From NCBI GenBank assembly GCA_977020255.1, contig CDROCS010001000.1, positions 496,001-560,000 on the forward strand: a DNA stretch of 64,000 bases, given 5' to 3'. Under the pieces are notes generated by a model. It ran no database searches. It saw only the letters and a program-made list of their open reading frames with translations, and was not told the DNA's origin. Shown piece by piece: positions 425 to 42,689 of this stretch (position 1 is its first letter; each line of letters begins with the position of its first letter). Made by a program: the position numbers and the translations under genes. The DNA comes from Obrimoposthia wandeli. Lineage: Eukaryota.

Positions 425-600
425 CATTGATATTTGTCTATGATATGAATACATTTTATACTAATTTGTAATAAAACATGAATCTCATTAGTTAATATAA
501 CTAAAGTATTGAATTTGATTGGACTAAATCCATATATAAAATCGAAATTAATTTTAAGAAATATATCATCCAGTTATAGGTTTGCAAGATATTTACAAGA

Positions 601-1158
601 ATGTGCAATAAAAAAGCAGGTTCAGACATGTATAAAGAAGAATTTACAGAAAACAATTTTAGTCTTTTGAAACTCGTAAATATAAATTATAAATGAAGAA
701 TATAATATGATATTTTGTACTTACCATTCAATGATTGGAAGCCGAGACAATATGTGAAAAGGTTTGATGATTTAACAGTTCTTATTTTTCTTTTCGGTTA
801 GATTTTTTTTCATGTTTAATTTTTTAGGAAGTTGTCATGTCATGGTATGCAAAACACCATTGAATTTGATCAATTTACCATTTGGAATTCAAATCAGCGC
901 CACACAATCAATCACAGTTTTAGTTAATCTCGGAAAAGCAATAAATCTTTATTAAATGGCAGAGAAAATGAAAGAAGAATGCATATTTGAACTGGACATT
1001 TTTCCTGCTCTAAGATATTTGTAGTTTACACTGATATGTGTAAATATATTTTTTAGTGGTAAAGTTATGATATTGGGATTGAAACATTTTGATTATAAAG
1101 ACACTGTTGAATCGATTTTAGAAATACATTTTATTAAATTTTGTTATCTTTTCTATAA
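601..1158 (+). pseudogene. TBP-like gene, decayed copy with GT-AG intron 797-827
   Basis: ATG TGC AAT AAA AAA GCA at 601. Remnants LLKLVNINYK, intron, then GSCHVM, CIFELDIFPAL and VNIFFSGKVMILGLK align to the 28783-29349 copy. Confidence 0.8.
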
Positions 1159-23559: not shown

Positions 23560-26085
23560 CAATCATATTACCAATTTATAATCAAACAAACAACATAGTT
23601 CTTGTTTCTTCCTACGTCCTTGGATTTTGACTGAGGATATTATGTGATAATTCGGTTATTGAGCATATCATTCATTCATTCAATTACACTTGCAAACATG
23701 CTAGAATCATATTCAATAGGTAGATTGTATAAAAAGTCATGAGGGTTTACAGGTATTACCAAGTCTTCCTCCATAACATAACCATATTCAATATGTTCCA
23801 TGTTCACATTTTTCATTTCATGCACTATTTCGTTTAGCTTTATATCATAAAGAATCCATTCAAAATCTCCTTTTGGTAAAGGTTGATCAAGAGCCCATCC
23901 ATATAAATTATTAACATCTATATATAAAAGACTAGTTTCTTCATCAGCAACTACATGATGCTTATTGACAAATATCATTCCTCCACGTATACCCGAATAA
24001 ATCATTTTGTACATTCCAGGATTCTACATCAGTTCAACCTTATGTTTTAACATTTTTAGAGCACTTGTCCAACTCGACTAAGAATGCAAAATAAACAAAG
24101 TGGTTCTAAACCAGCTTCGCTGAGAGCTTTTCTTCTGAATGTTTAAAACCCGTCAGCTAATAAATATACGTCAGTCTTTAAGTAAACTAACATAAAGTCC
24201 ATCATATTTCTACAATTTGTTATTTTCCAAACATCTTGTGCTTTTTGATATTCAGTGTCTGTGATTTTATCATTTTCTTTTACTGGAAAACCTAACTTAT
24301 TCTGGAGAACATTAAATGAAGTAGCAAGATCACATGGGAATATTCCTTTGTCATCAATGAGTTTAGATGGAAAATCTGATCTTGTTAATGGAATGCTTGG
24401 TAATTTACTGGCTAAATTCTCCAAAGATGATTGTAAAAATTGCAAAGAATCTATAAATCTCAGAGTTATTTGACCTAATCTTACAATCATTACCTAAAAT
24501 TTTTCTGTCGATTGAGGTATAATATTTATATCACAGTCAGTAAATTTATTCAATGCATGTTTTAAAATATGATGTAAATCATAACCTCTGAGATTATGAA
24601 ATACAATAGGTAAAGTTGGACGAAGTTTTCTTGATAAATTACATTCATTTCATGCAGGACCTAGATACTTGCCAGTAAAGTGATAATGATCTTAAACATA
24701 TTTTAAGGTTGGTTCGTGACCTAAATAACATTCATTGGCATTGCTAATTGCACGAATCTATGTATTTGTTCTGGGAATCATTACGTTTTCAAGCGCATTT
24801 AAATACCATGGCAATACCTTTTCTTTAACCAAGTTCTCCATTGACTGAAAATATTCAACTATACAGTCATCACTAACATTATGTTGATACTGGGTTTCAA
24901 TTTCATCTGTGATCATAAATAACATAATAGATGCGACATGCATATGCTTTTGATGATAAATCTTATCTGGTATTCATACAGATTCAAAATCAGCGAAAAC
25001 GACATATTTCGGCGATAGAGTCTTTGACCAATCGATCAATTTAACGTACTTATTCTTAGGCATAGTATACATTGTAGTGCTTTCTTGATTATAGTCACAT
25101 AAAACTTTGTGCTTTTCTAATGACCAATCGGTTTTGAATCCATGTAAACAATCTTCACACCATTTTCGGCTAACTCTAGTCGTTTCCGTTCGAATATTTA
25201 ATAGCCGGTTAAGACATCTTATTCCTATATAATGAAACCGTTCCTTGGATTCTAGTAACAATAAATTAACTATAGTTCATCTCTTTATTTTTGATTTGTA
25301 TGCGACATCGATATACGGATTCTTGATAACATCAGTTTTTGATTCTTTTTTCACTTACCTCATTGAATATGAATACATATATTATTATACCAGGATTTTG
25401 CCGTTCAAATTTTGATATATTTGATATTTTCATAGGCATGTTTTCGGTATTATATACAAAGTCATTTAAAAATCTTTTATAGTTGCTTGGTCTACTTCTA
25501 TTTATTTCTATTTAATTATATTTAAGTATTGATAAAATTGCATAAATAAAGCAAATATAATTAGATTTTTGAATATTTATGACTGCTTTAGATTTTGTAA
25601 GATAATTTGGTTATTTAATATATGAATGACCTGACAATGCACAAATTTGGCTATATTTAATAGCAATAAATGTGTGTTCAAGTATTTTCCTCAAATTCCA
25701 ACCACTACCTTTTTCTGAATATTCTTCAACTTTATTTTCTATTGTATCTTTCATCTTCAAAATTATAGCATGTAAATAAATCATTGCTCGATGCGAAGCA
25801 TACCATTCATTAGTTTCTCCATCATTCTTTTCAAACCTCATCCTGATGATGTATTGAATATTTGCATTTCTCATTAACTGTACTATTCTTTCTAGTTCGT
25901 TTAATAATGCACCTGGAACCTTATGACTTACAAGATTGAGGTGATCTAATTTTATGGATATAGTTGAATAAATATTTTCTAACGATGATTTAGTCTGTAT
26001 ATTGTCATTTATTTTACGTTTTCGTGATGGAGTAGGAGCTGGAACTACTACACGTGATGGTTCATTAACTATATCAGTTCTTTTG
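23560..26085 (-). pseudogene. Protein-primed DNA polymerase B (family B), frameshifted and 3'-truncated
   Basis: TP region EEYSEKGSGW; CEDCLHGF; VVFADFES (Exo I); endonuclease VII remnant; FIDSLQFLQSSL; YLKTDVYLLAD; GIRGGM...YIDVNNLYGWAL (Pol A). Motifs B and C are absent. Confidence 0.92.
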
Positions 26086-26086
26086 C

Positions 26087-26389
26087 TTAAAACTGGTACT
26101 TCAAATAATGTTTTTTACCACCATTTTTATATTCTGTAATATGACTAACATGTCGACTATAAAATGAGTTGTAATCAACATTTTCAGTACTTAAACATTG
26201 TGAACATATATAATAATTTACCCTATTGTATGAATAACCATAATAATTTTTCATGATATCATGACAGACTTGAGGCTTAAAATGTGTTACCAATGAACAG
26301 TAATTTGAATATATTTTGCATTTACTTATCTGTTGATTTGATTGGTCTTGAGACATTGATTGATTTGTATACTGAATTAAAAAAAACAA
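26087..26389 (-). CDS. Cys/His-rich 100-aa ORF, probably the frameshifted N-terminal leader of family-B pPolB
   Basis: C..C, C..C and H..H residues. It ends KNGG before an A-run, where a 1-nt shift continues into KTLFEVPV...PSRKRK and the pPolB frame. Confidence 0.5.
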   Translation of the reverse strand: MFFLIQYTNQSMSQDQSNQQISKCKIYSNYCSLVTHFKPQVCHDIMKNYYGYSYNRVNYYICSQCLSTENVDYNSFYSRHVSHITEYKNGGKKHYLKYQF

Positions 26390-26423
26390 TATAAATACAA
26401 TAACTTTAATTATTTTACTTACA

Positions 26424-26886
26424 ATGTTAACAAATATTAATTATAAAGGAATTTACCTAGATGATGTAACCAAATTAAATTTTCGAACACGATCAGAACA
26501 ATACGTTTATAAAACCAAAGATTATACAATACTTATTTTAGAAATAAAAAATGTAGGATCATGGGATGTAAGGTTCCTATTAAAAATATTTTTTATCCTT
26601 TAATATATATAATAGGTATATATTTAGTATTCAATCAATTACTGTATGTGAAAATTTAGGTCAAAGTATAAATCTATTCAGTTTATGGAATGTGTTACGT
26701 AATAAATGTGCATTTGAAGTTTTCCCAGGCTTAAAATTAAATATTTTCAATCCATTGTGTGGGAATATTTTCACTTATGGAAAGGTTATAATCTTAGGTC
26801 TTAGGAATATAAATGTTAACAATCAAATTAATGATATCATTACATACATTAAAAAATTATATAAATATGAATCAATTTCTAATTAA
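26424..26886 (+). pseudogene. TBP-like gene (family B), two frameshifts, no intron
   Basis: MLTNINYKG...TILI(F)RNKKCRIMGCK...IQSITVCENLGQSINLF...FEVFPGLKL..NPLCGNIFTYGKVIILGLR: two TBP-type repeats. Confidence 0.8.
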
Positions 26887-26901: not shown

Positions 26902-27285
26902 ATGTCTTATAAAGCACTTCAAAAGTATTACGAGTACGATATGTTCTTCCTGACATCTGCATGGATTCATCCAATGACTATGCCAGTGACATTATCGAAA
27001 ACTTCGTACAATTACCGAGTCTCTGATTTTGACAACAAATACATCCAACAACTCAATGATGTCATCAAATATTTGAAGATTGACGTACAACTTGATAAAG
27101 TGGTATATAGTGTCGGTACTAAACCAAAGGAACAAGCCCCCAGTTAAATTTCTTAATACAACACCAAGTCAGGTCTGAGAGGGGGTACCTTTTACTGCAA
27201 AACCATTTTGGCGTTGTATGTGTGATTTCAAGAACAATTTTAAGTATGGCACTATATATCTTACCGTTTAAAACCAAAGTAGATT
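26902..27285 (+). pseudogene. SSB/OB-fold-like accessory gene (family B homolog of 28105-28569)
   Basis: FFLTSAWIHPMTMPVTLSKTSYNYRVSDFDNKYIQQLNDVIK aligns by eye with RFLKKAQLIALVNPVTIERRKFSYYLSNIQKPDFQYLKQKVE. After a shift it continues to FWRCMCDFKNNFKYGTIYLTV. Confidence 0.55.
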
Positions 27286-27494
27286 AAGTAGATTTTAAGT
27301 GACCAAAGTCTCCCTTGCGGAGCCCCCTAAGAGTGGAGCCCTTCATTTGAAGACCGGACAGCACCTTTGGAAAAGATTATATTTATATTACTTTTGTTTA
27401 AAGTTAACCTTGAAATAATAATAAAATCAATTAATTATTTATTCATATGATAAATAACACTAAAATAAAATCAATTAATTATTTATTCATATGA

Positions 27495-27969
27495 TTACAA
27501 TTCAGCGTCAGTAGGTGGTTGTGTCCGGTCTAATCCACCCCCCTCACGGGGAGAGCTACCACTGTCCTTTAAAACCGTGCATGTGTGTGGAGTGACATTT
27601 CGTGCATGTGTGTCTCCATTCCACCCAGCAAAATATCCATTGAGACGTATTGAGATATTCCATAGTTCTTCATCTAGAATTGGAGCAATCAAATATCCTA
27701 GATCATCTTTAAAATCCAGACTGGGATCAGTTTCAAGCTGGAAACAATTTCCTTCATATACATAATCAAGAATGTAAAATCCCAAAATATTTTTCAATTG
27801 ATCATTTATCAGATGTTGTTAAAATTTCGATGAGATATTTATTCTCCACTTTTGATATTTTCACAGGATTAATAACTCGTATAATTTGATGCCTCTTTAA
27901 TATATTACATAGTTTTCCTTTTGAAATTCTTTCTGGATAATAAAAATTTGCTACACATCTCTTACCCAT
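27495..27969 (-). pseudogene. SSB/OB-fold-like paralog B (tandem paralog of 28105-28569)
   Basis: Reconstructed ILKRHQIIRVINPVKISK...LKNILGFYILDYVYEGNCFQL...DFKDDLGYL...NISIRLNGY aligns with FLKKAQLIALVNPVTIER...LKQKVEKAVPNFTFNKNEFYI...AFLDDYGRY...TVTIRLYGY. Confidence 0.65.
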
Positions 27970-28104
27970 TCTAAAATAAGGAAACTGATTAAAAAAACAA
28001 TGTTTATAAAAAAACTACACATAAGATACATATAAGATACAAATATTTAAAAAATAAAACTGATTATTAAATGAAAGAAACATAGTAAAATCGATTACAA
28101 TTTA

Positions 28105-28569
28105 TTACACGTAAAAGTTAAACATAGAAATATGAGCACGTTCAATTTTCCACATAGGCAACTTTGTCCCCATTTCATCTTTCTTGTAACCATAAAGTCG
28201 AATTGTTACAGTCAGTTGCTTCTTTTTCGGAAATGCATCAATATCAACATATCTTCCATAGTCATCTAGAAATGCTTCATCGGGTCCTCGGATATAAAAT
28301 TCGTTCTTATTGAAAGTAAAATTCGGAACTGCCTTTTCAACTTTCTGTTTAAGATATTGAAAATCTGGTTTTTGAATATTTGATAGATAGTAGCTGAACT
28401 TTCTTCTTTCAATTGTCACAGGATTTACTAAAGCAATCAGTTGAGCCTTCTTCAAGAATCTGACTTTGTATTTGAAATATTGTTTCACTTCTTCATACAT
28501 ATCCTTATCCGATTCTTCAAACATTTCTATATCTTCCTCATCGTTTAACACCTGTTGGCTATCATCCAT
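28105..28569 (-). CDS. 154-aa Maverick accessory protein, putative ssDNA-binding OB-fold (paralog A)
   Basis: Intact ORF with an acidic N-terminus and a beta-rich C-terminus (LTVTIRLYGY...GTKLPMWKI) reminiscent of viral SSBs. Three copies in the window. Function is inferred. Confidence 0.55.
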   Translation of the reverse strand: MDDSQQVLNDEEDIEMFEESDKDMYEEVKQYFKYKVRFLKKAQLIALVNPVTIERRKFSYYLSNIQKPDFQYLKQKVEKAVPNFTFNKNEFYIRGPDEAFLDDYGRYVDIDAFPKKKQLTVTIRLYGYKKDEMGTKLPMWKIERAHISMFNFYV

Positions 28570-28782
28570 CGTTGATAATTGTCTTTGATATGAATGTATT
28601 TACTATGATTTGTCCTCCAATGACGCATTCTTTTATACTAATTTCAAACAAAGACATGAATATCATTGGTTAATATAACTAAAGCATTGAATTTGATTGG
28701 ACCAAATCCATATTAAAAATCAAATTTTATTGGAAGATATATATCATCCAATTACATTGGGTTTGCAATATAATTACAAGAA
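28570..28782. promoter_or_regulatory. Divergent promoter with six CCAAT/ATTGG boxes between the SSB-like and TBP-like genes
   Basis: CCAAT at 28617 and 28748; ATTGG at 28665, 28696, 28729 and 28756; TA-rich GATATATATC at about 28736. Confidence 0.55.
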
Positions 28783-29349
28783 ACGTGCAATAAAAAAGCA
28801 GGTTCAGACATATATAAAGAAGATTTTACAGAATACAATTTTAGTCTATTGAAACTCGTAAATATAAATTATAAAGGTAGAACAGAAGATGATGTTTCGT
28901 ACTTACCATTCTATGAATGGAAACCGAGACAATATGTGAAAAAGTTTGGCAATTTCACAGTTGTTATTTTTCCTACAGGTTAGTTTTTTATTTTATTTTC
29001 ATATTGAATTCTTTTAGGAAATTGTCGTGTTATGGGATGCAAAATACCAATACTTGGGTTCAATTTACCATTTGGAATTCGAATCACTGCAATACAATCA
29101 ATCACGATTTCGGCAAATCTTGGGAAACAGATAAATCTTTTTAAAATTGCAGAGAAAATGAAAGAAGAATGCATGTTTGAACCAGAAATTTTTCCTGCTC
29201 TCAGTTATTTGAAGTTTAAACCGCTATGTGTAAATATATTTTCCAGTGGTAAAGTTATGATATTGGGATTGAAAATTTTTGATTTTCTAGACATTGTTGA
29301 TTTGATTTTAAAAAATATATCTTATTACATCTTGTTATCTTTTCTATAA
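28783..29349 (+). CDS. TATA-binding-protein (TBP)-like protein, about 175 aa, exons 28783-28978 and 29018-29349 (start codon ACG here, ATG in the 601 copy)
   Basis: Spliced product: ...LKLVNINYKG...VVIFPTGNCRVMGCK...IQSITISANLGKQINLFKIAEKMKEECMFEPEIFPALSYLKFKPLCVNIFSSGKVMILGLK. This matches both TBP repeats (cf. ALIFSSGKMVCTGAK; YEPELFPGLIY; LLIFVSGKVVLTGAK). A 39-nt GT-AG intron removes an in-frame TAG. Confidence 0.85.
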
Positions 29350-29366
29350 ACAAACCTGTTTAAACA

Positions 29367-29648
29367 TTGTTTCAAATGAATAATACTATAAATAGAGACA
29401 ATGAAGTGGATCGGCTTGCCGACGAAATATTTTCTGGAAAAATTAGGGGTAAAGAAATTTTATCAGAATTAAAAAATAATGATATAACAAGAGATAACAT
29501 TGAAATATTGGTTAGATCACACGTTATTCGAGAATTTAGAAATCGTACACAAATAAATAAAATTATAGTCAAATATTCATTAATTAATTTTTGTATTTCA
29601 TCTACAATAGCTCTAACATTGTACATTTCAATAAGGAAACTTCTATGA
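29367..29648 (+). CDS. 93-aa hypothetical Maverick protein with a C-terminal hydrophobic segment
   Basis: Intact ORF ending IIVKYSLINFCISSTIALTLYISIRKLL; homolog at 1185-1358. Confidence 0.65.
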   Translation: MFQMNNTINRDNEVDRLADEIFSGKIRGKEILSELKNNDITRDNIEILVRSHVIREFRNRTQINKIIVKYSLINFCISSTIALTLYISIRKLL

Positions 29649-29685
29649 TAATATAAACAATATTAAAAATAAAAGAGTATATGCA

Positions 29686-30333
29686 ATGGAGCTAAATAAT
29701 AATGCAGTATTTCAAATAGTTGGTCCCAGTGGAAGTGGAAAGACACATTTCGTATGTAAATTGTTGCAAAATGAATCTCTTTTCAAATCTAGTTTCAAAA
29801 ATATTTATTGGCATCATGGTGGAGGAGGGGAAAGCGGATTAACCAAAACAGAAGTTTGCAAGTTGAAGAGAATACAATTTATTGAAGGATTTGATGCAAA
29901 TTGGTGTGAAAGATTGAAATAAGAAGATGTAATAATAATTGATGATTTGTATCAGGAAGCTAACAAGGAATCAGACTTTAATAATTTATTTACGAAGATT
30001 GCAAGACATCGTGAAGTAACAATTATATTTATCACTCAAAATCCTTTTCACCAAGGAGGTCACCATAGAACTAGAAATCTTAATGTGCATTACTTAGTTT
30101 TATTTAAAAATCCTAGAGATCAAACAGTTGTTGATTTCGTGGCCAGACAGGGATTTCCCCAAAATAAAAACGTTTTAGTTGATTCATTCCACGATGCTGC
30201 TAAACAAGCACATGGGTATATATTTATTGACTTTACACAAGCTTGCCCAGATGATTTACGTGTTTTAACAGACATATTTAATTCTAAGGGAGTAACTGTT
30301 TATAAACAAATAGAGAACAATCATAAAAGATAA
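29686..30333 (+). pseudogene. A32/FtsK-HerA-like DNA packaging ATPase with one premature stop (TAA 29920-29922)
   Basis: Walker A GPSGSGKT; Walker B IIIDDL; RHREVTIIFITQN; RTRNLNVHYLVLFKNPRD. The two ORF-track halves are in the same frame. Confidence 0.95.
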
Positions 30334-30340
30334 ATGTACA

Positions 30341-30481
30341 ATGCCTTTTACGAAGTTGATAGTAAAACGTAAAGCAAAGCCTAAGAAATCAAAAAAATGA
30401 ATCATTAAGAAAAAAGAAGTGAAAAAATTAATCAAATCTGTAGTTAGAAATATAAAAAAACTTAAATGGCTTCGAATATAA
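30341..30481 (+). pseudogene. Small lysine-rich basic protein (putative core/DNA-condensing), one internal stop
   Basis: MPFTKLIVKRKAKPKKSKK*IIKKKEVKKLIKSVVRNIKKLKWLRI. Confidence 0.5.
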
Positions 30482-30512
30482 ACAATATTTAAATTGAACC
30501 TTTTTTATTAAA

Positions 30513-30842
30513 ATGAAGAAAATACAAAGAAGCATACCCTATTTTAAAGCTTTAGTCAAAGCCTCTTCTCATAAGAGTATGATTATTCTTAAAGCATTTC
30601 CATCTTTTGTTGTAGATGATTTATTGGAAGTTTTGTATAATATAGTTTTGGGTCGAGTAAAAGTTGGAAATCGGAAAAATATATTAAAGAAATATAGAAA
30701 AACTCTTCTAGATATTGCTAATGTAAAAAGTAAAAAAAGGAAACGAAATATTATTCTTAAACATAATGGTGGTTTCATAGGGGCTGTTATTCCAGTTGTT
30801 GCTTCAATTATCAGTAGTATTATGGCTGCGACACGTTCATAA
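30513..30842 (+). CDS. 109-aa Maverick conserved basic protein with a C-terminal GG|F amphipathic peptide (putative virion core/membrane-active protein)
   Basis: Basic body followed by KHNGGFIGAVIPVVASIISSIM, a pattern typical of Polinton small structural proteins. Confidence 0.7.
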   Translation: MKKIQRSIPYFKALVKASSHKSMIILKAFPSFVVDDLLEVLYNIVLGRVKVGNRKNILKKYRKTLLDIANVKSKKRKRNIILKHNGGFIGAVIPVVASIISSIMAATRS

Positions 30843-30925
30843 ACAATTATTTATAAAATCAGTTAAAGATATGGGTGCTAACCCTTCTTTACCTAAATTT
30901 AAATTTTCTTTCAATTCAAATTGTT

Positions 30926-31945
30926 GTAATGGAGAAGAAATGGTTCAATACAAAAGATCCAATTGGCTACACAATAGTTTCAAAATTAGCAAAAAGAACA
31001 AAACAAAATTACAAGAAAACGCAGAAATGGTTGAGCAACCAGTTAGCCTACAGTCTGAACAAGCGGATGAGAAGAAGGTTTCCAACTAGAGCTTACAAAA
31101 CCAGCGGTCCTAATAATTTATGGCAAATGGATTTGATGGAGATGATCCCATATAATAAGGGATATCGATATATTTTAACATGTATTGATGTATTTAGCAG
31201 GTTTGCTCGTGCAATTCCAGTTAAAGCAAAGTCTTCAATAGCTATGCTTGAAGCCATTAAAGAAATATTAAAAGAGGACATTCCACAAAATTTGCAAACT
31301 GATTTAGGAAAAGAATTTTATAATAAGCAAGTTCAATCTTTATTTAAACAAAATAATATAAATCACTACTCTGTTTTCACAGTATAAAGCAGCAGTAGTA
31401 TAAAGATTTAATCGTACTTTAAGAGATCGAATAAAAATGTATTTCACAAAAGAAGGAAATAAAAAATGAATCCAAGTTTTATCTAAAATAATACATGCAT
31501 ATAATCACTCGGAACATAGAGGTCTCAAGGGAATGAGACCGGTTGATGTTACTAATAAAAATTCTATGGATATTTGGATGGACAGGATTTAAAAAGAAAA
31601 TATTAAAAAAGCTAAATATAAAAAAAACGAATATGTCCGAATTTCGAAAATTAGCTCTACTCCATTTATTAAATACTTTGGTCAGAATTGGAGCGATGAA
31701 ATATTTTGTATAGGTAAAATTGATCAAAAGAGTAATCCAATTATGTATACTATTAAAGATGCTGACAATACTATCGTTCACGGTAAATTTTACGAGCAAG
31801 AACTACAAGTAATATCAAATAAACCTAGCGTTTTCCGTATTCAAAAAATATTAAAATCTAAGGGTGCCGGTAAACATAAACAATACTATGTTAAATGGCA
31901 TGGTTATTCAGATCCAACTTGAATATCAGCATATAATATAATATG
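30926..31945 (+). pseudogene. Retroviral-like (rve) integrase with C-terminal chromodomain
   Basis: WQMDL, CIDVFSRFA and LQTDLGKEF (two catalytic D). KAAVV*RFNRTL has the catalytic E mutated to a stop. Also YNHSEHRGLKGMRP, WSDEIF, GKFYEQEL and chromodomain QYYVKWHGY. Confidence 0.95.
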
Positions 31946-32993
31946 AAGTCTATGTATATGGTTTTACTTAGTAACGGATGTCCGAAGACTCAACCAGATA
32001 ATTACGCTAGTAGCTTTATTATCGATTGGGAAAATCCTATAAATCTCCAAGGAGAATGGGAAGCGGCTTTAACAGAATTTTCCTTTTATTATTCTCCAAT
32101 TACTATCAGAAAAAACTCACATATTTCGTTTACAAAAGAAGTTGATCATGAAAAATCAATTGAAGTTCTGATTAGGTTTGATAGTAAAGGAAAATTCTAT
32201 TACAATTGTATAGATAAAGAAGTCAAAGTAATATATGAAAAAAACAAAGTCAGATTTAAAAATCGACTAAAACATTTTTTAAAACCTATTCAAATTATAT
32301 TTGGATCTGATAGAGAAGCTCTTCAATTCGGTTTTGACAGTGGACATGTAGTAGATATGAAGAGATCTGATATAGCCTCATCTAAATCGTTTAAAATGTA
32401 ACAAAAGTGTTTTTAGTTGAAACGAGACCAAAGTATGTAGTGGAACTGAAAATGTTTTCAAAAGATTATAAATTAGATAGCGAAGTGAATTTCTGTAAAT
32501 TAATACAGAAGGAATGTAGTGAATATTTCGATACATGTGTAACATTAAAAAATGGTAAAATAACGTTTACAGTAAAGAGCAATATAATACGAGTTTTATT
32601 TGATGATAAACTCGCTAAAACCTTGGTTTAAACAGAAATACCTTTGAAACCCATACAATAAAAACCATAAAAGCTAAAAATAAGGCAAAACTTTTAAATG
32701 CTGTTAATCATTTATATATTTATACTAATTTAATAGAACTAACGCTTGTAGGATGACAGCGAGTTCCACTTTTGAGAACAATATGGATATCTAAAAATGA
32801 AACTAGAGATGGGGACGCTGTCGGTATGTGTATAGATCAACCAATGCATCTTCCAGTTTCTCTCTTTTCTATAAACAATATTGAAGTAAATATTAGAGAT
32901 GATTCCGGACAACTAATAGATTTCACGTACGAGGCCAAGACAAGTTTAACAATACATTTAAGAAAACAAAATGGCGAATCCAGCAATAATTGA
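31943..32993 (+). pseudogene. Minor capsid protein (penton, PX), disrupted
   Basis: N-terminal YMVLLSNGCPKTQPDNYASSFIIDWENPINLQGEWEAALTEF and C-terminal IEVNIRDDSGQLIDF...LTIHLRK are typical Polinton penton motifs; it lies upstream of PZ and MCP. Confidence 0.85.
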
Positions 32994-33348
32994 AGCTTAT
33001 AGTTAAAGCCAACAAGGTGGAGAATTACCATATTTTGTTGGTAAACAATATGGATCTGGCTAGCTTAGAACATTAGGTAGATTAGCCTTTTATCTTTTAA
33101 AGAGACTCGGGCGATTTATATCAAAATTAGGAAAGGAATACCTTTCATCTAAGGACAATAAACTAATACCAACTTTTAAGAAGCATGCGCTTGAGGAACT
33201 TGATAATGTTTTACCTTAAGTTGCTAATTTGATTAGAAAACGTAAATCAAATAAAAGCCAAGGAGGTAGTGGATTTAAAAGTAAAAAGAAGCAAAAAATC
33301 AATATAAACAAACGTAAGAAAGTTGAAGGAACAATATTTGCAAAATGA
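32971..33348 (+). pseudogene. PZ-like conserved Maverick structural protein
   Basis: MANPAIIEAYS*SQQGGELPYFVGKQYGSG*LRTLGRLAFYLLKRLGRFISKLGKEYL (cf. Q.GGGLP.F.G...Q.G.G.G..L..LFR). The stop overlaps the MCP ATG. Confidence 0.8.
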
Positions 33349-34573
33349 GTTGCGCCAAAACTGAATTGTGTATTTTTGATAAACCGCTTCCACAAGTAGT
33401 TGTAGATAATGCTTCCTTTGAAGAAATATTTCTAGTTAACTCAGTTTCAGGAACCACTTTAACCGATTTAGAATTTAATATTAATGGTTCCAATAGCGAG
33501 TATTTAGATTTGAATGATACTTTGCTTTATGTTCAAATAAAAGTATTAAATCGGGATGGTACTAATTTAGATGAAAATGCAGATGTAACACCTGTACATT
33601 ATCTCTTTAATTCTTTATTTAGTGATGCCATTGTTACTCTTAATAATGTCAAAATTGAAGGTGGAAATTCTTCCTATGCTCATAAAGCGTTGATTGAAAG
33701 TCTTTTGAATTATAGTACTGATACTCAAAATACTAATTTGGCAACCATTGGTTATGATAAAACGGTCGCAACTCGCAAAGAATGGATTGCAGGTTCTAAA
33801 GCTTACGAAATGTGTGGGTCTTTGAAATTGAATTTCTTTGAACAACCGAAATATTTAATTCCCGGTGTTAATGTACATCTTCGTTTGAAACGTAATAAAT
33901 GGAATTTTTCTTTGATAAGCACAGACGTTCTAAAACCTAGACTTGATATTTTGAATGCAAAATTATATGTCCGAAGAAGTAAAACGGAGCAATCAGTTTT
34001 AATGGCACATAATATAGGAATGGAAAAAAACAATGCTTGTTATCCTATTAGAGAAACTAAACTTATATCCTATTCTTTAGGTACGGCTACACAAGCTTTT
34101 AATAAGGATCAAATTTTTGGTGATGTAAGATTACCGAAATTCATTTTAATTTCTTTTCAAAAAACTGCAAAGTATCTAGGAAATTATACGACAGATGCAA
34201 CTCAATTTGACAATCTTAATGTAGGTTCAGTGACACTTTCAAGAAATACGATTATCGTGAAACAAATAAAACAGATTTCGAAGGTACCGCTTATGCTTTG
34301 GCTTATACACAATCTATTATTCGGAATTTGGGCCAACTAGATAAAAATATAAACAATGGTATTTCTTTCACTGAGTTTAAAAGCAGCTGCCCCTTCTTCA
34401 AATTAGTTTTGGCACCAGACTTTGATATAAACCAATGCCAACTACCAAAGGATGGAAATTTACGACTAGAAATTAAGTTCAATGTAGCTTTAACACATCC
34501 TACTACGGTGCTTATTTACGGAGTGTTTGATTCCGAAATACAAATCAATAAAAACAGAACTGTCATATTATAG
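33345..34573 (+). pseudogene. Major capsid protein (double jelly-roll, PY), one frameshift near 34250-34300
   Basis: CAKTELCIFDKPLPQ, LEFNINGSNSEYLDLNDTLLYVQIKV, YAHKALIESLLNY, KYLIPGVNVHLRLKRN; C-terminal DGNLRLEIKFNVAL...VLIYGVFDSEIQINKNR. Confidence 0.93.
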
Positions 34574-34574
34574 A

Positions 34575-34955
34575 ATGAAGTAAGACATTTTTTAAATTTA
34601 TATTTATTAATTTTTATTTAGTTCAGTACAAGTACAAGTATGAGCAGAGAAGGTCTTGGGTGATAAATTCAATGGAGTTTATCCTATTGATATGATTCCA
34701 TTTTTTCAATCTGGAGGATACATTATCAATACTCATACTTCGAATTTACCAGGAGAACATTGGATAGCTATTTATGTTAGAGAGTGGACAATACATGTAT
34801 TTGATCCACTTGCAATGTATTATCCACACAAACGTGTTTCAACTATTCAAAAAGGACGAAGAAGAGTATTTTACAACAAGATACAATATCAGGATCCTGC
34901 GACGAGAATCTGTGGACATTTATGTATTTTATGGTTATCGTTGCAAAACGATTAG
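34575..34955 (+). pseudogene. Adenain-like cysteine protease, exons 34575-34579 and 34622-34955 (42-nt intron), one early TGA
   Basis: Spliced MNSVQVQV*AEKVLGDKFNGVYPIDM...GEHWIAI...VFDPL...QYQDPATRICGHLC contains the His-Asp-Gln-Cys catalytic set. Confidence 0.9.
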
Positions 34956-35220
34956 TGTGTTATAAAAATAGAAATTTTAAATGTTTTATTTTGAATTATT
35001 TTTTTTAAATCCCTAAAGATATAAGGGTAAAATAATAAAAGACATAAGACGAATTTTTTTTTAATACATTTATTAAAAACAACATCACAATGAGATCTGT
35101 CAGCAAAGATATGGTCCATCCTAAAAAATGTTTTGAAATAACAAAATGTTAGAGTCAAGGTGCCATAGGGATCTAAAATTTTAAAGGACTAATCTAAAAA
35201 AATAAAAAAATGAAAACCGT

Positions 35221-38200
35221 TTAAATTCGGAAGTGTCCATAAGCCAGGCTAGCGATTTTTGTTGATTTATGGGAATACATTTGATGGGCTCTTGAAATAA
35301 ATCTAGTTTGCTCAACGCTTTCAATACACCCAGTATCATAAACTTTCCGGTAGGCCTCATTTGTAAGATTGTTTCTTCCCACACCCTTTGCTCTCATTGA
35401 ACATGTATTATTAGATGCATGTAAACTGTAGCATTTAGGGCGTAGGAAAATACAATCATCATACGAAACCTGTCCCTCGCTTTCATCCTTAAATTTCCCG
35501 ATAATATCCTTTAAACCCATAGAGTGTAGAGGATGGTAGCGGGATATTTATGGGTATCTAGTAAGTTGTCCCTAAACATTGCCGGTAATAATTGACTATT
35601 TAAATTAACATTCCTACATTCTAAAAAGAAATAGTCAGTGTTCTCGGCTGCAATTTTGATCTCACAATTAAATTCATGTCGATATTTCTCTAATTCTATG
35701 TATTGAAGCTCGTACATTCTATTTTAGAAATGTCTAAAACCGTTTGACCTATGTAACTTGGTCTATTGAGACAAATTCTCTGTTTTCTTAATAATACTGC
35801 TACCAAGTCATCTGCAATTGTAAAACTACGCTTGAAGTTGTACTTGCTAGTATATGTTATTAGTTTACGCTCATCATTGCAAAACCGTAGACAAATACGT
35901 TTCCGCAAGTCCTCTACAGTTTTTCGAAATAAGCTATTACTTTTTAACTTGTAAAAATCCCGATCGAATTTGCTAGTGGCCAAATTACGCTTTCTAGAAT
36001 TCTTCTCAATATAGTCTTTAAACACAAAGTTTTGACTTAAGCTTATAGCACGATGAATTCGAGTAACTTTCGCTCCCAACTTTAAGTAGAATTGAAGAAG
36101 CCGCCAATGCACAACATAATTCAACTTGTCTTCATGGGTAAACAATAATTTCTTAACCTTTGAATTAGGTGGGCATTGATGAACAGGTGCTACTGGAAGA
36201 TCATCTAATTTATCATGCACATTGGACGGGATTGTTAAGTCAACCTCAACCAAATAGCCGATGTCTGATGAAACTGTATCAACAGTAGCCAACTCTGTCA
36301 TCAACTTATTCAACTCTTCCTCATCATAAACCCACTTAAAGTTGGCATGAGGTAGAGGTTGAGTAAGTGCTCACCCATACAAATTATTAATGTCGATGTA
36401 CAGAATCTCCGTGGATTGATTTTTGACAACATGATGTTTGTTGACAAAAGTCATTCCACCACGTATACCATAATCATACATTTGATACATCGCGGGATCT
36501 TGCAGTAACTCGATATTAATTTTAAGAGTTTTTATTGCTGTTGCCCATGAAATACCAGGTAAACTAAAGAAATGCATGGGATCTAGCCCATCTTCTGCTC
36601 AAGACTTTACACGAAAGGACTCAAAAACATCAGCTAAAAGATAAATGTCTAATTTCATATAATAAAGCATATATTCTAAAAGATTTCGACAATTATTCGC
36701 CCAAAATGTACGGGCCTCATTATAGTCTTGAAGACTTACACTTTCAAATTCAGTTATGGGTGGGATTTCTGTGGGATTTTCTAAATCTGCAAAGGTTTTC
36801 GCAAATTTATACGGAAAAATCCCCTTATCATTAACCGAAGCTGGGAACACTGACTATGTGATTGGCCATGCATTTAAAGATGTCGTTAAATTTTTTAAAG
36901 ACCCGCTCAAAAACTGCAGAGAACCTATGAATCTTAAACTGCAGAATTCAGTATATGCAGTTAAAGATAAATATTTATCTGAAGTTTGAGGTATACATGG
37001 AATTTCCCAAGAGCTTAATGTACCCAACGCATATCCTTTGAGGTTATGAAACACGATGGGAATTCGTGGTTTTTTAGGGAGACGACGGCCAAGGTTACAG
37101 AGGTTGCACGCCGCTCCCAAGTATCGCCCCGTAACATGATCGTGATCTCTGACTATTTTAGACTGGGTTCCACACAAATAACATAATCTACAAGAATTAA
37201 AATTAACCCAGTATATGCCTGTCATGATCATTGCTTGATGAGCATTAAGATCATACCACGGTTTGACAATTGTTGTTCCTAATTCCTCTAATTTTAACAT
37301 AAAATCTAAAATACAATTTATGATACTGGGTAATATTGGGACCTAATAATAGTAGTCCTGCCGAAGCCAGTAGGTGAATACTCTCATACTGGTCGTGCAA
37401 TGCTAAAATTGACTCAAAATCTGCATACACCCTGAATTCTACGGGTATGCATTTTGCCCAATCCCTGAATTTTAAATCCTTATCCTTAGGCATGCTATAT
37501 AGCTTATTGTCATCAGGATTCAGTGAACATAATGTCAGATGTTTGCTGTAAGAGAGCTCGGATCGGAATCCATGCAAACATCTATGACACCACTTACACC
37601 TTATCCTAAACGGTAAGGCTCCATTATCTAAATTTAAAAGACGATCTAAACTGGGAATTGCAGCATAATGGAATTTATTATTCTGTTCGAGCAAAATTAA
37701 GTTGACCTGAGTCTCCTCATTTTTACTCCTATAAATTACATCTACCAAAGGATTTTTAAATATTTCTTCATCTGTTACATTAACTGAGATATCAGTATTA
37801 TATTTGAATACATTAATACTCAAGTTATTAAGATGTTCAAATCTTGATATCGCAGTTAATTTAACAGGAAAATCTATTCCATGATACTGCAATTCATTTA
37901 AAAAGGGGTATATTTAGTGACACGTTCTCTATGCTCAGTAATTACACCTTTTTCGAGGATGGCCAACACGCTATACAGAAAGCAAAGGTTATCACTGTTT
38001 TGTATGTTAACAATGGAACGTGAAAGTTGAAGAGATCTATATGAAGGAATGTATGAACTCCCCGAAAGATATATCATGTCAGTGAACTTTGTTAGAACAA
38101 AGCTAACATCGTGAATTCTAACTAGATTCCATCCACTACTTAACTCGCTATAATTAGCAATTTTTTCATCTAAGTTTCTTCCAATTTCAGTTACAAAATT

Positions 38201-39766
38201 ATCATAGAAAACAGTTGCTTTATGCAAAATTACCCAAGTTTTAGTCTCCTCATTGACATTTTTAAACAGCACTGTTGCACAAAATTGAACCTTAGCCTGT
38301 CCTAATTTAGTCACTTCTATTTTTAAAAGATTTTCAATATTTGAATCTACACCTACGTTTAATAAAATTTCATTTCCTAATGGCACCTTAATTATAACAT
38401 ATTTATTATTTAGGTGATACTCTATAGTAGCACCGTTTTCTCTACATGTGTTTGGTGGGACCTAATTAAGAAATTGGCCTCGCCTCTTTCTTCCTATAGT
38501 CGCTGACAAACCTCCCCCTAATTGAACGGGAAGACAACTATTTATATTAAATCTTGAAGTTGGTGCTGCTGATGTTGAGGCAATCGCAGCTGATGTGGAA
38601 GGTGCTGCTATTGGATATGCTGCTGTAGTAGATGCTGCTGTAGTAAGTGCTGCCGCAGTTGTAGATGCTACATTTGGAGTAGTAGCCGACGAAGAAGCGG
38701 CTGTTGTAGAGGATGATGCTGCTGAAATAAATATATTAAAAAATAAATATATTTCTAAAAATTATTACCTCTAAGGCATGCTAACATCGATGTATGCACT
38801 CGCGATGGTGGCGGCATAGCTGTTGTAGCGGAAGACGGTTGTATGACGGTAGTCGCTGGCATTGGCGATGAAGAAGCGACTGTTGTAGAGGTTGAAACTG
38901 CTGAAAAAATATATTAAAAAATAAATATATTTTTAAATATTATTACCTCTAAGACATCGATGTAGGAACTCGTGATGGGGGAGGCATAGCTGTCGTAGCG
39001 GATGACGGCTGTATCACGGTATTTCCTGAATAAAAATAAAAATAAAATATATATAATTACAATTTATAAAAAGAATCTGAAAAATAATAAAAAAAACCTA
39101 ATGAAAGCAATCCAACTGGAGCTGGAATGAAGTCCTCTTCATTTATGGAATCCATCCAGCTGTCGTCCGTTATCTCGACGAAATCGGATTCCTCGATGGT
39201 TTCCAACCATGAGTTATCGCTCCACTGAGGCTGCTCCATCTTGAAATCTGACTGGGTGATATTTTACATCCAGTCATTGTTTGAGAATTGGGTTGCTGGC
39301 TCCATCTCCTCAAAATCTTCTTCGGAGATGTCGTTCATCCACTCATTGTTAGACATTTGAGTAGATGGGGCAGCAGCAGAATCAGGAGCCGGGACAGAAG
39401 GACCAATGGCAGGACCGTAAAAGGGTTGATCGACTGCAACTGGAATTGGAGGTGGAGCGGCCTACGAATCGCGCAACAATTGGACGATATCCCTCTTCTT
39501 GTTGTTGGCCGTGAAACACGATAGATGAGCTCGATGTTCACCGAAGAATTCTCGAAACTCCTTCTCCTCCATTGTTCCGAAGAAGGGGCAGACGAAGAAG
39601 TGAAGCCCGCGAGACTTTTTCCGATAGTAGGCGGACATTATCTCCATGCAGGTCTCTTCTCCATGCGGAGCCGAAGCACCACAATATGCTGGAAACAGGA
39701 TACAAGTAATCTGAAATAAGAAATATTAATAAGGAAATAATAAAAATAAATTCTTACCATAGACAT
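35221..39766 (-). pseudogene. Protein-primed DNA polymerase B (family C) with a spliced N-terminal leader; multiple stops and frameshifts
   Basis: Leader exons lead into TP (SSGW), vOTU-like (NIQNSDNLCFLYSVLA), CHRCLHGF and VYADFES. Then endonuclease VII (CYLC..RDHDHVTGRYLGAACNLCN), FHNLKGY, YMKLDIYLLAD, YIDINNLYG, KLKSNSLF.K, ENTDY (degenerate DTDS), LRPKCYS and the terminal AYGHFRI. Confidence 0.93.
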
Positions 39767-39805
39767 TATTTCAAATTGTCGGGGATTTAAATGAAGAAGA
39801 ATTGT

Positions 39806-40278
39806 TTATCTACATGTCAAGTAATAATAAGAAAGACTTAAACATTTTTTATATGCACAATGGTCACCATGATTACGATATGGACAGCAAATATTTCGTG
39901 GAATTTTTAATAGATGATCACGTGAAATATTTAAAGTATTCAACCTCAATTTGGGAAAATATTTATTTTGCCATCCATTTCATCTAAAACATAAAAAAAT
40001 CCATTTTCAATATCAAAATTAGATTTTATTGTATCGAAAATACATATTTCACAAATAGCCTTATGTCCTTCTTTCCATTTTAACAAATGAAAATAATTAG
40101 TTAGATATAAATTAGTAAATTTTTTCTTATAATCTAAACTTTTAAACGGGATATCTATTTGAAATATGAAATGCAAAGGATGAAAAACGTCGCATACATC
40201 CATAATACATAATTCTTTTATAATATAATCACCATTTTTGTTAATGAAAGCCTCAAAATCTATGATATATTCCTGCAT
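39806..40278 (-). pseudogene. DEDD-superfamily / Maelstrom-like nuclease-domain protein (one frameshift)
   Basis: N-terminal YIIDFEAF...IIKELCI (Exo I DxE). After the shift it reads NICCPYRNHGDHCAYKKC, a Cys/His cluster. Confidence 0.6.
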
Positions 40279-40377
40279 AATTATCTAAATTTGCAGCAAA
40301 TCCCGTTGTTTATAACGAAAAAAGAAAAAAGAAATTATTAAAATAACAAAGTATTCAGGATTCAATCCTTCATGTTT

Positions 40378-40860
40378 CCAACCTGCTGTTGTCGCTCCAC
40401 TGAGGCTGCTTCATTTAGAAATCTGACTGGGTGATATTTTCCATCCAGTCATTGTTCGAGAATTGGGTTGCTGGCGCCAACTCCTCAAAATCTTCTTGGG
40501 AGATGTCGTTCATCCACTCATTGTTAATCATTTGAGTGGATGAGGCAGCTGCAGAATCAGAAGACGTGAGAGAAGGACCAATCGCAGGACCGAAGATGGG
40601 TTGAACGACTGCAACTGGAACTCTTAAACGATATATCTATATGAAATATGAAATCCAAAGGATGAAAAACGTCGCATACATTCATAATACATAATTCTTT
40701 TATAATATAATATCCATTTTTGTTAATGAAAGCCTCAAAATCTATGATATATTCTTGCATAATTACCCAAATTTGTAGCAAATCCCTTTGTTTATAACGA
40801 ATAAAAAAACCATTCATCAAAAATTTATTAAAATAACAAAGTACTCAGGATTAATATTTT
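40378..40860 (-). repeat. Chimeric internal duplication: 5' part of the nuclease gene (40621-40860) fused to a copy of the acidic leader exon (40378-40620)
   Basis: 40378-40620 is similar to about 39203-39446; 40621-40860 is similar to about 40140-40375. Confidence 0.85.
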
Positions 40861-41262
40861 CATGTTAAGATTTGTATATATTGTCAATTATCCTATGAAT
40901 ATTAAAATAAATTATATTAAATGTAAACATACCTAAATATTTCGAAATTAAATTACATAATTTATATCCAACAATTTCCTCAGTATCATTATCTGAAAAG
41001 TAATTTTTTTTATAATCTTCCATTAAATCCGGAGATAATTTTATGTATAATTTATTTCAAATTTTATTATCCATTTTACAAAAACATTATATATAAAATT
41101 GTTTATATTTAGTATGCTTATGTAAAATATTTAGACAATTATATAAAATATTTAGACAATTATGTAACATAATCAACAAAGACAAAATAATATTCAAAAA
41201 ATTAATTTTTTTGGATAAGGACCCTCTTCCGGTTTAATCTGGAGGATTCTCTTTTTTGCTGC

Positions 41263-41523
41263 TCACCGATTATCCTCCATCTTTTCTCTTCTTTTTTCAT
41301 CCACCTTCCTTTTTTCAAATTCGATCTTCTTGTTCCACTCCACGATCCGACGTCGTTCTGCTAGCCGCCTATCTTGTATCTCCACCCGGCGATTCCACTC
41401 GGTCGCGACAGCAGCATACAAATTTTGATTGAGGACACTCTTTCTTAAGTCCCCTTTCTTCTCATTTATTCTGATGTTTGCTTCTATCTTCGCTACCAAG
41501 CTTTGCAATTTAATGAATTTCAT
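41263..41523 (-). CDS. 86-aa charged coiled-coil Maverick protein
   Basis: Intact ORF, E/K/R-rich; two more decayed copies at 12710 and 16690. Confidence 0.7.
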   Translation of the reverse strand: MKFIKLQSLVAKIEANIRINEKKGDLRKSVLNQNLYAAVATEWNRRVEIQDRRLAERRRIVEWNKKIEFEKRKVDEKRREKMEDNR

Positions 41524-41544
41524 TTTTTAATTATGAAGATGTTA

Positions 41545-41600
41545 ATAAATTTGAACCTATATATATATAAATTTAAGACATTTTTAATCCAATCACAAGC
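41545..41600 (-). promoter_or_regulatory. Conserved GATTGG plus TATA-like promoter upstream of the coiled-coil gene
   Basis: The minus strand TGTGATTGGATTAAAAAT...AAATTTATATATATATAGGTTCAAATTT is almost the same as 12636-12686 upstream of the element A copy. Confidence 0.6.
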
Positions 41601-41761
41601 AATGAAATTATATTTTTTTATGTATCAAATGAGAGTTTAATAAATCTATAACTAATCATTGCATTTATATTTAAACCTAAAACATTTTAAAAGATTCCTT
41701 ATTAATCCAATCACAGTCGAATAATTAAAATTCTGTATTAGACCGGACACATCCACCTACT

Positions 41762-42144
41762 GTTATTGATGATTATATCAAGTGGCTAACAAAGAATCTG
41801 ATTTTAATAATTTATTTACAAAAATTGCAAGACATAGAGAAGTTACTGTAATTTTTATAACACAAAATTTATTTCATCAAGAATGAAATCATCGTACTCA
41901 TAATCTTAATGTACATTATTTGATTTTATTTAAAAATCATAGAGATCAAACAGTGATAGATTTTATTGCTCGTCAAGCATTTCCTCATAACAATAGTTAT
42001 TTAATTGATGCGTTTCATGATGCTACATCTTTACCACATGGTTATTTATTTTTAAATTTTACTCAATCATGTCCTGATGATTTAAGAATTGTTACTGATA
42101 TATTTAACCGTAATGGTATTACAGTCTATAAACAAAAGAAATAA
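41762..42144 (+). pseudogene. 3' part of a second packaging ATPase, abutting the right terminus of element C
   Basis: VIDDLYQVANKESDFNNLFTKIARHREVT...PHGYLFLNFTQSCPDDLRIVTDIF aligns to 29935-30333. Confidence 0.9.
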
Positions 42145-42689
42145 TTTAAAAAGTTTAAATATATATTAAGATATTAAGATGATAATCTAATTTGTTTGAA
42201 TAATTTGTTTTATTTACATATTAAACAATGTGATTAAATTGATTTGGTATTATAATTTATTGACTAAGCTTTCAGTTTCTTTACTATTATTTTCATGTCT
42301 TTGAAAATAATTTTGCAATATTCGATAAACAGAGAATAAAATTGTTTGTTGAGTTAATTTACTAAATTTGTATATATAAATATATTTTCGAATAGTTAAA
42401 AAGAGAAACAAATAATGATAATTTCAAATTATATTTATGAATATATTTTTATAACCAAGTTATTTGAAAATAAAGAATTCAAATTTATCTAATTATTTAA
42501 AAATATTTCAATTAAGGAATGTTATTTAATTGCGGGAGTGTGTATGAACTGTTAACTTTAGAGCAAGTACATGAAGGTAAAATATGAAAAATCACATCTT
42601 AATTATTATAATTTTCATCAGATTGTTACATCATCTTCATTGATTGATATTATTAATTTATAATTAGCTAGTACTCACTTACAGTTTTA

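Follow-up and report, generated by a model that had tools for sequence, protein, structure and literature searches.

The stretch of Obrimoposthia wandeli DNA analysed here (the window, 64,000 nucleotides in length) contains TBP-like genes in the remains of two Polinton/Maverick families, termed B and C. The locus raises the question of how two families in one genome came to carry such a gene, why it is interrupted by a short insert in one family and continuous in the other, and what use a mobile element might make of it.

Maverick relics in the window

The window, an AT-rich eukaryotic stretch (about 28-30% GC), is a cluster of nested Maverick relics. Element C (27510..41761) is a decayed 14.25-kb Polinton/Maverick lying between two short terminal repeats; its ends match over ~25 nt at 27510 and 41761 and have the AG-starting terminal inverted repeats of Polintons, of which element B shows one eroded end (27351-27365). 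No 6-bp target-site duplication was found at element C, where the flanking six bases differ, and its right end abuts the 3' part of the ATPase gene of another copy (41761-42163), so that this copy of C has probably been rearranged. The ATPase piece against the right end indicates a nesting of family copies, one inserted within another.

The genes of element C encode an SSB-family protein, a TBP-like protein, a packaging ATPase, an rve integrase (PF00665, E 2.6e-14), capsid-type proteins, a protease, and a protein-primed DNA polymerase (pPolB; PF03175, E 2e-6) with an endonuclease VII domain. For the packaging ATPase, the match to PF04665 (E 4.8e-6) is that of the relative in metagenome locus L024; the protease has only a weak match to PF00770 (E 0.027); and the capsid-type genes, which have no match in Pfam, NCBIfam or the PDB, bear labels that we assume from motif and position. 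The SSB-family gene (28108..28566, minus strand), recognized from the family alignment and the model of a relative, lies head-to-head with the TBP-like gene. Alignment places exon 1 of the latter at 28774..28978 (plus strand), an open frame whose start codon is not established, and exon 2 at 29018..29349 (plus strand), with a Pfam TBP match at 29008-29346 (E 1e-12). A second family C copy of the TBP-like gene, A (598..1123, plus strand), contains stops, its region being 82.7% identical in nucleotide sequence to 28146-29501, and a fourth, more eroded TBP-like remnant (48073..48300, plus strand; tblastn 46%, E 1e-11) consists of the C-lobe only. In four DNA-type contig sets of one sample both families are covered very deeply, C about tenfold over B, a depth that is not to be read as copy number.

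Other pieces of the same or related families, from termini, pPolB, capsid-type genes and the SSB region, occur at 10072-10174, 12546-16200, 43340-43532, 54140 and 56667-57393, and a probable host exon at 18803-19081 (plus strand) has a motif that we take to resemble a MATE-type transporter. Within element C, an ORF at 39060-39460 (minus strand) has repeated acidic W-M-x-x-I-x-E-x-D-F motifs, presumably akin to an activation or host-protein-binding repeat. Another ORF, which has a D-x-E motif close to the start, is present in two copies (39949-40284 and 40560-40844, minus strand) and is conserved in L016, L017, L024, L028 and L032-L036; it has no Pfam match, is preceded by TATAAAC in C and several loci, and is assumed here to be DEDD-exonuclease-like.

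Element B, a relic of a second family

Element B is a broken 3.7-kb fragment of a second Polinton/Maverick family. Of its polymerase gene, the 5' part remains (23679..26114, minus strand), broken by stops and frame changes and without the 3' part; a Pfam search matched PF03175 at 24146-24493 (E 4.9e-7), and the aligned part contains 8 in-frame stops. Pieces of the B and C polymerases share 28-61% amino acid identity, mostly 40-50%, with one 148-nt match and no more at the DNA level. Each is 45-49% identical over long segments to the intact polymerase of L024 (45% for B), and all three pairs are roughly 45-49% identical. Because of these distances, the assignment of B to a second family with a clearly different pPolB, made in an earlier, sequence-only reading of the window, holds. 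TBP and pPolB of useful length occur together only in B, C and L024, too few for a tree.

Ahead of pPolB in element B, and head-to-head with the TBP-like gene, is a small Cys/His-rich ORF (26356 to 26090, minus strand). It has a homologue in C at 39465-39710 (minus strand; BLASTP E 6e-10, 21% identity) that also sits before pPolB; it has no Pfam match, and no homologue was found among 81 loci. Midway between the divergent B start codons (region 26356-26424), at ~34 nt from each, a canonical TATA-like box (26390..26397, plus strand) can be seen, a candidate compact bidirectional early promoter in AT-rich DNA that yields such words by chance. Downstream of the TBP-like gene are the N-terminal half of a gene for a single-stranded DNA-binding protein (SSB) with an OB fold of the T7 gp2.5/Enc34 type (26902..27147, plus strand; hhalign probability 95%, E 2.7e-8 against family alignment A6) and an eroded terminus (27351..27365, minus strand). 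The terminus, found by end alignment, carries the word TGTCCGGTCT, which is also present at the element C ends (5 occurrences across the window versus 0.76 expected, the B copy at 27351-27360).

The gene order proposed earlier, with the pPolB leader back-to-back with TBP and followed by SSB and the terminus, is thus right in placing TBP head-to-head with the pPolB side and in the succession of SSB-family ORF and terminus-like motif; it overlooked the Cys/His ORF between TBP and pPolB and the reduction of SSB to its N-terminal half. Given that only this half is present, the direct succession of SSB and terminus may be the result of an internal deletion. The position of SSB differs between the two elements, being head-to-head with the TBP gene in C and downstream of it in B. 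Neither an rve integrase nor ATPase, capsid or protease genes were found in the 3.7-kb B fragment, itself incomplete, and no other terminus of element B was found.

The TBP-like gene of element B

The compact TBP-like gene of element B (26424..26886, plus strand), delimited by motifs, Pfam and alignment to C, is intronless, has two frameshifts and lacks two stirrup codons. The five motifs from which it was first recognized are all present on the plus strand, starting at 26433 (NINYKG), 26552 (CRIMGCK), 26629 (IQSIT), 26713 (FEVFPGL) and 26764 (NIFTYGKVIILGL), and are spread over three reading frames. The frameshifts lie near 26540 and near 26600, and no workable GT-AG segment was found that would account for these frame changes. 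In the C-lobe stirrup a two-codon gap has removed the first TFIIB-contact glutamate and the proline behind it, the second glutamate being kept.

The sequence-only reading held that B still encodes a homologous two-repeat TBP-like protein. Homology is borne out by 45-49% amino acid identity between B and C pieces, by a Pfam TBP match of the 3' piece (E 3.7e-5), and by a score of 66 bits for C exon 2 against the B region, where 20 shuffled versions of that region reached no more than 18 bits. The frameshifts and the stirrup gap mean, however, that the B copy does not encode a whole protein any more: it is a broken relic. Nor is the term two-repeat apt, the first TBP lobe being reduced and not a full repeat.

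Age and origin of the gene

When C exon 2 was used as query, 7 compact relatives were found (47-55% identity), and a family profile search yielded 49 clusters (50% identity) at E<1e-30; at a looser E<1e-10 it yielded 433 clusters, which probably include cellular TBPs. Among 80 metagenome loci returned, 60 were classed as members of the compact TBP family, whose proteins are mostly about 145-180 residues long, typically ~150. Another element-C gene was matched in 41 of the 60 loci and a core Polinton gene in 28. The 19 loci without a match to another C gene are 1.0-3.1 kb long, and a core Polinton gene was present in 13 of the 15 family loci of at least 3.5 kb.

In a tree of 85 rows, built without animal TBP or TRF paralogues, a branch of length 1.44 (support 99) divides all 66 compact rows, A, B and C among them, from the rest: 18 rows of cellular type, which are of plant, protist or archaeal origin or, in one case, come from a viral contig, and a single row that was not assigned. 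Selection was evaluated from 496 codon-aligned pairs, of which 34 had pS in the range 0.03-0.6. The 32 unsaturated pairs of intact loci, which are not independent of each other, have dN/dS values of 0.05-0.48 (median about 0.18), and the intact relatives are under purifying selection. Values for the window copies are 0.81 for C versus A, which is read as decay after insertion, and 0.43 for L011 versus A; B versus C is saturated at synonymous sites (pS 0.85, pN 0.40), and dN/dS is not computable for this pair. Pairwise TBP identity is correlated with ATPase identity (Spearman 0.65, 17 elements, p 0.0005), with integrase identity (0.83, 7 elements, p 0.005) and, as a co-divergence check proposed from the sequence alone had envisaged, with MCP identity (0.39, 8 elements, p 0.036), deep splits supplying much of the signal in these correlations.

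A single clade, purifying selection and co-divergence together argue that the gene is old, inherited and maintained, and that it was not captured twice. The earlier suggestion of an old, retained gene instead of a recent host capture is therefore supported, on trees in which the compact clade stands apart from 18 cellular-type TBPs and its distances track those of ATPase and integrase. The accompanying statement that the second family carries the gene independently is not: B and C lie in one clade, and the simplest reading is common descent from one element-borne ancestor. Separate recent captures by B and C from different host paralogues, to which the differing gene orders and the composition of the trees (no animal TBP or TRF paralogue) would lend some room, are extremely improbable and already largely refuted, given the reduced N-lobe and family-specific residues common to B and C, the place of both inside one element-borne clade, and the distance of intact members from solved cellular TBPs (20-29% identity; best PDB matches of the family profile archaeal at 1e-18, ahead of human at about 4e-13). 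The genome harbours two families, separated by a deep split, each of which inherited the mini-TBP gene.

Origin of the short predicted intron

Both family C copies of the TBP-like gene have a GT..AG insert, at 28979..29017 in C (39 nt, plus strand) and at 797-827 in A (31 nt), and the DNA alignment confirms the earlier observation that this position is uninterrupted in B. The C insert is a predicted phase-1 intron that interrupts the Gly codon of the F-x-x-G turn in the N-lobe, and reading it unspliced leads to an immediate stop. In L037, a 40-nt GT-AG intron occupies the same Gly codon and phase as in C and A, and in each of the three genes, taking out the segment bounded by GT and AG brings together two halves of homologous coding sequence. 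Among the 55 family loci that are informative, 54 read through the intron position, the exception being L037.

Since nearly all members of the family are intronless, deep branches included, gain is the parsimonious reading, and the short predicted intron was probably gained rather than lost, in one or two events. The intron gain or loss inside a mobile element that had been proposed is therefore a real difference between B and C, for which the wider sample favours gain on the C side. The placement of B is unstable, with C at 90/80 (unstarred) in a 36-row tree and elsewhere in the 85-row tree, so that the intron may have been lost in B.

A single origin of the intron in the ancestor of C and L037, and perhaps of B too, with subsequent loss in B and other lineages, would explain why the L037 intron lies at exactly the codon and phase of that in C; it agrees with the position of B next to C in the 36-row tree, and a tree in which the three intron rows were held together was not rejected (AU p 0.29). 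It is nevertheless rather unlikely. The free 36-row tree needs two changes for the three intron rows, which were grouped in 0 of 200 bootstrap trees; in ATPase, integrase and MCP identity, L037 is no closer to C than are the intronless L013 or L024; and a single origin has to accommodate the 54 intronless loci. The intron site in C and L037 reads CAG|G, a common intron insertion context, which makes parallel gain plausible.

A segment scan listed further AT-rich GT-AG segments of 45-47 nt in C, at 39757-39711, 38946-38901 and 38768-38722 (minus strand) and at 35217-35173, and none in B. The first of these (47 nt) lies just after the start of the small Cys/His ORF of C, and the B homologue of this ORF is uninterrupted. 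Lineage C is, on these predictions, acquiring short host-type introns. Matching GT-AG segments are also found at 13073-13117, 14289-14334 and 14467-14513 (plus strand), in a family C region ahead of pPolB. Some of the family C segments lie in tandemly repeated exon-intron units, which suggests that the putative introns multiplied through local duplication. In the portions of the literature available here, vertebrate Mavericks are reported to be intronless (PMC8097293), and introner insertions are described for Polinton-like elements of dinoflagellates (PMC11957031).

Fold and conserved residues of the compact TBP family

An AlphaFold model of P0003, an intact relative (pLDDT 91.6), aligned with human TBP over all 146 residues (Z 13.0, rmsd 2.8), and its only helices of at least 4 residues are at 84-90 and 132-145. 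The compact TBP is thus predicted to have the two-lobed saddle fold of cellular and archaeal TBPs (PF00352; 7egb_P, 1cdw, 2z8u) without N-lobe helices; members of the family are about 30 residues shorter than cellular TBPs, with which they share 20-29% identity.

Residues were counted in an alignment of 118 family rows. Three of the four DNA-intercalating phenylalanines of canonical TBP are kept (113/118, 115/118 and 115/118 rows), and the first N-lobe one is replaced by proline in 104/118 rows; the correspondence of these alignment columns to the intercalating residues is our assumption. Family-specific substitutions are V to R (114/118 rows), T to M (117/118) and L to N (116/118), at positions that we take to lie on the DNA-facing strands of the TBP structure. 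The family also keeps the E-P-E-x-F-P loop of the C-lobe and the two F-x-x-G-K turns; the C-lobe stirrup glutamates are kept in 103/118 and 114/118 rows, element C having both and the B copy one. The columns of N-lobe helix 2 are gapped in about 60% of rows, including those of B and C, divergent members keeping part of it, and this helix of canonical TBP is missing from the model. According to the accessible part of PMC7221094, the C-lobe glutamates of TBP contact TFIIB, and N-lobe helix 2 carries a basic regulatory patch.

The SSB gene adjoins the TBP gene in B, C and several loci, in three different orientations. The model of an SSB relative resembles the SSB of Enc34 (Z 8.5, rmsd 2.8, 102 residues) and, more broadly, T7 gp2.5/Enc34 SSBs (5odk, 4klk, 1je5; Z 7.8-8.5 over 100-104 of 109 residues), but the protein is much shorter than these, with 6-9% identity, and B keeps its N-terminal half. 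In L020 (1479-2644), two SSB-family genes lie in tandem upstream of the TBP-like gene. L024, apparently an intact element, has a penton-type gene in two tandem copies (5616-7684) and a ubiquitin-conjugating-enzyme gene (PF00179). Cargo near TBP-like or core genes of other loci (L002:4008-4316, L028:1918-3327, L029:2303-3109, L037:1710-2168, L049:6273-7037) comprises a dual-specificity phosphatase, leucine-rich-repeat proteins, a RING finger and a dynamin-like GTPase. P0159, a single database record, links a TBP-like domain to one that resembles the ORF following TBP in L028 and L029; the fusion may be genuine or an artefact of gene calling, and the case for a TBP-SSB fusion is weak, the SSB probability of the extra domain being 2%.

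A candidate late promoter and the likely role of the mini-TBP

On the sense strand of the ATPase-integrase-capsid-protease module of element C (29345..34432, plus strand), the word TATAAAC, a candidate late promoter, occurs eight times (at 29345, 29652, 30301, 30477, 32870, 33303, 34348 and 34426), versus 1.5 expected (30 dinucleotide shuffles). Across 17 loci, some of them near relatives, the packaging/capsid strand has 85 such words versus 17 expected and the opposite strand 3 versus 13, counts to be read with the fact that many of the words fall within codons that are conserved in the gene upstream and that the shuffles were not codon-preserving. TATAAAC lies 25-80 nt before an ORF start at 43/73 sites, versus 21% of random positions. 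The variant YATAAAC was found within 90 nt upstream of 28/47 other genes versus 1/49 TBP starts, the start codons having been picked automatically, with a few wrong and one row representing a cellular TBP. Element B, a fragment without the capsid module, has 0 plus-strand TATAAAC sites.

Four partial Polinton contigs of another type, obtained with an integrase query and including three close relatives, served as a control and gave no TBP match; TATAAAC occurs 0-1 times per strand in three of these contigs and, on one strand of the fourth, 6 times versus 3.1 expected. ATPase and MCP queries of viral contigs found no TBP-less Polintons. No TFIIB match was found by Pfam in 39 ORFs of the window, nor in 66 and a further 17 proteins, a search of partial loci in which a divergent TFIIB could be missed.

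The reading favoured here, with somewhat better than even confidence in it as a whole, is that the TBP of the B relic shares an element-borne ancestor with that of C, that gain of the intron probably took place on the C side, and that the intact protein is likely a late-promoter factor, predicted to bind TATAAAC and to recruit host TFIIB and RNA polymerase II. Early on, host TBP would serve the TBP, SSB and polymerase genes through ordinary promoters. The mini-TBP would then recognize TATAAAC through the family-specific residues on its predicted DNA face and dock host TFIIB through the conserved E-P-E-x-F loop, so bringing host TFIIB and polymerase II to the late packaging and capsid genes, and it could escape host regulators that bind N-lobe helix 2. 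Against such a late-promoter role, host TBP may read TATAAAC as well, and the B copy is dead and has kept a single stirrup glutamate of the two.

The main rival is a decoy or inhibitor, with TATAAAC serving as a compact promoter for host TBP: the mini-TBP would titrate host TFIIB or occupy host TATA boxes and so damp host transcription. Retention of the TFIIB-contact glutamates alongside loss of one intercalating phenylalanine and N-lobe helix 2 would suit such a protein, as would the difference of TATAAAC from the canonical box at one position only and the presence of the TBP gene itself among the early-type genes. The near-invariant family-specific residues on the predicted DNA face nevertheless fit changed specificity better than loss of function, and three of the four TBP-less contigs are without TATAAAC enrichment, which makes a decoy unlikely. 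A role in replication or packaging, for example in bending origin DNA together with the neighbouring SSB, is suggested by the proximity of the two genes in three orientations and by the TBP-then-extra-domain order of P0159; it is very unlikely, since the TFIIB-contact loop is conserved, TATAAAC tracks gene starts and not termini, and the extra domain of P0159 is not clearly an SSB.

The late-promoter reading can be extended, tentatively and with rather less than even confidence, to a broad clade of small animal Polinton viruses having their own early-to-late switch, in which a single TBP of ~150 residues, its regulator surface shed, uses host TFIIB directly at a private TATAAAC box. In such a clade the gene would have diversified with the elements, and the intron in the N-lobe Gly codon would have been gained twice in parallel.

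Comparison with known systems

The TBP-like factors of large dsDNA viruses resemble the mini-TBP in being virus-borne and, as far as the accessible text of PMC7221094 describes them, without the eukaryotic N-lobe regulatory signature; Foldseek matches of the mini-TBP to them have 8-20% identity. In the same text (Ravarani et al. 2020, PMC7221094), conservation of the first glutamate in these viruses is put at about 40%, and almost all of them encode their own TFIIB, whereas the mini-TBP family keeps the two glutamates in the large majority of rows (103/118 and 114/118), in an element of about 14 kb in which no TFIIB was detected. The gammaherpesvirus TBP mimic ORF24, as portrayed in the available part of PMC12529657, serves late genes through TATTWAA, alongside host-like early promoters and host polymerase II. 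ORF24 with TATTWAA has the same working logic as that proposed for the mini-TBP with TATAAAC, but the mini-TBP is not a member of that group: ORF24-type mimics have extra domains that bind polymerase II and activators, and the mini-TBP is, according to the model, a bare TBP core of ~150 residues throughout.

Polintons/Mavericks (adintoviruses) are characterized in the consulted portions of PMC8502044 (Starrett et al. 2021), PMC8097293 (Barreat and Katzourakis 2021) and PMC10748475 (Jeong et al. 2023) by pPolB with an inner endonuclease domain, an rve integrase, a packaging ATPase, a protease and AGT-starting termini. The polymerase and the termini have counterparts in B and C and the integrase in C, and the packaging ATPase and protease of C are putative counterparts. 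In the accessible material of Starrett et al. (PMC8502044; 10.1101/697771), TBP occurs as a figure legend label for elements from non-animal datasets, with 0 matches in one supplement. Neither a Polinton TBP family nor a TATAAAC promoter came up in full-text searches or in the available text of PMC11161782, PMC10748475, PMC8097293, PMC11957031, 10.1101/2023.10.06.561300, 10.64898/2026.06.19.733378, 10.64898/2026.10.13.758929 and 10.1101/2025.04.19.649669, a scope outside which lie figures, bioRxiv supplements, Repbase annotations and subscription papers.

Implications

The inheritance of the gene by two families, together with the short host-type introns predicted in one lineage, is a modest but real addition to the biology of these elements; annotation based on ORFs would take such intron-split genes for broken ones. 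The timing of capsid-gene expression in Polintons/Mavericks is a matter that the cited Polinton literature, in the parts available, does not cover. If the late-promoter reading is true, a minimal TBP that is conserved and has a promoter word to match it would offer a testable answer on this timing and would be more evidence for a nuclear viral cycle of Polintons/Mavericks. It would also provide, in natural form, a minimal TBP whose specificity has changed, of use in learning what a TBP needs in order to start transcription.
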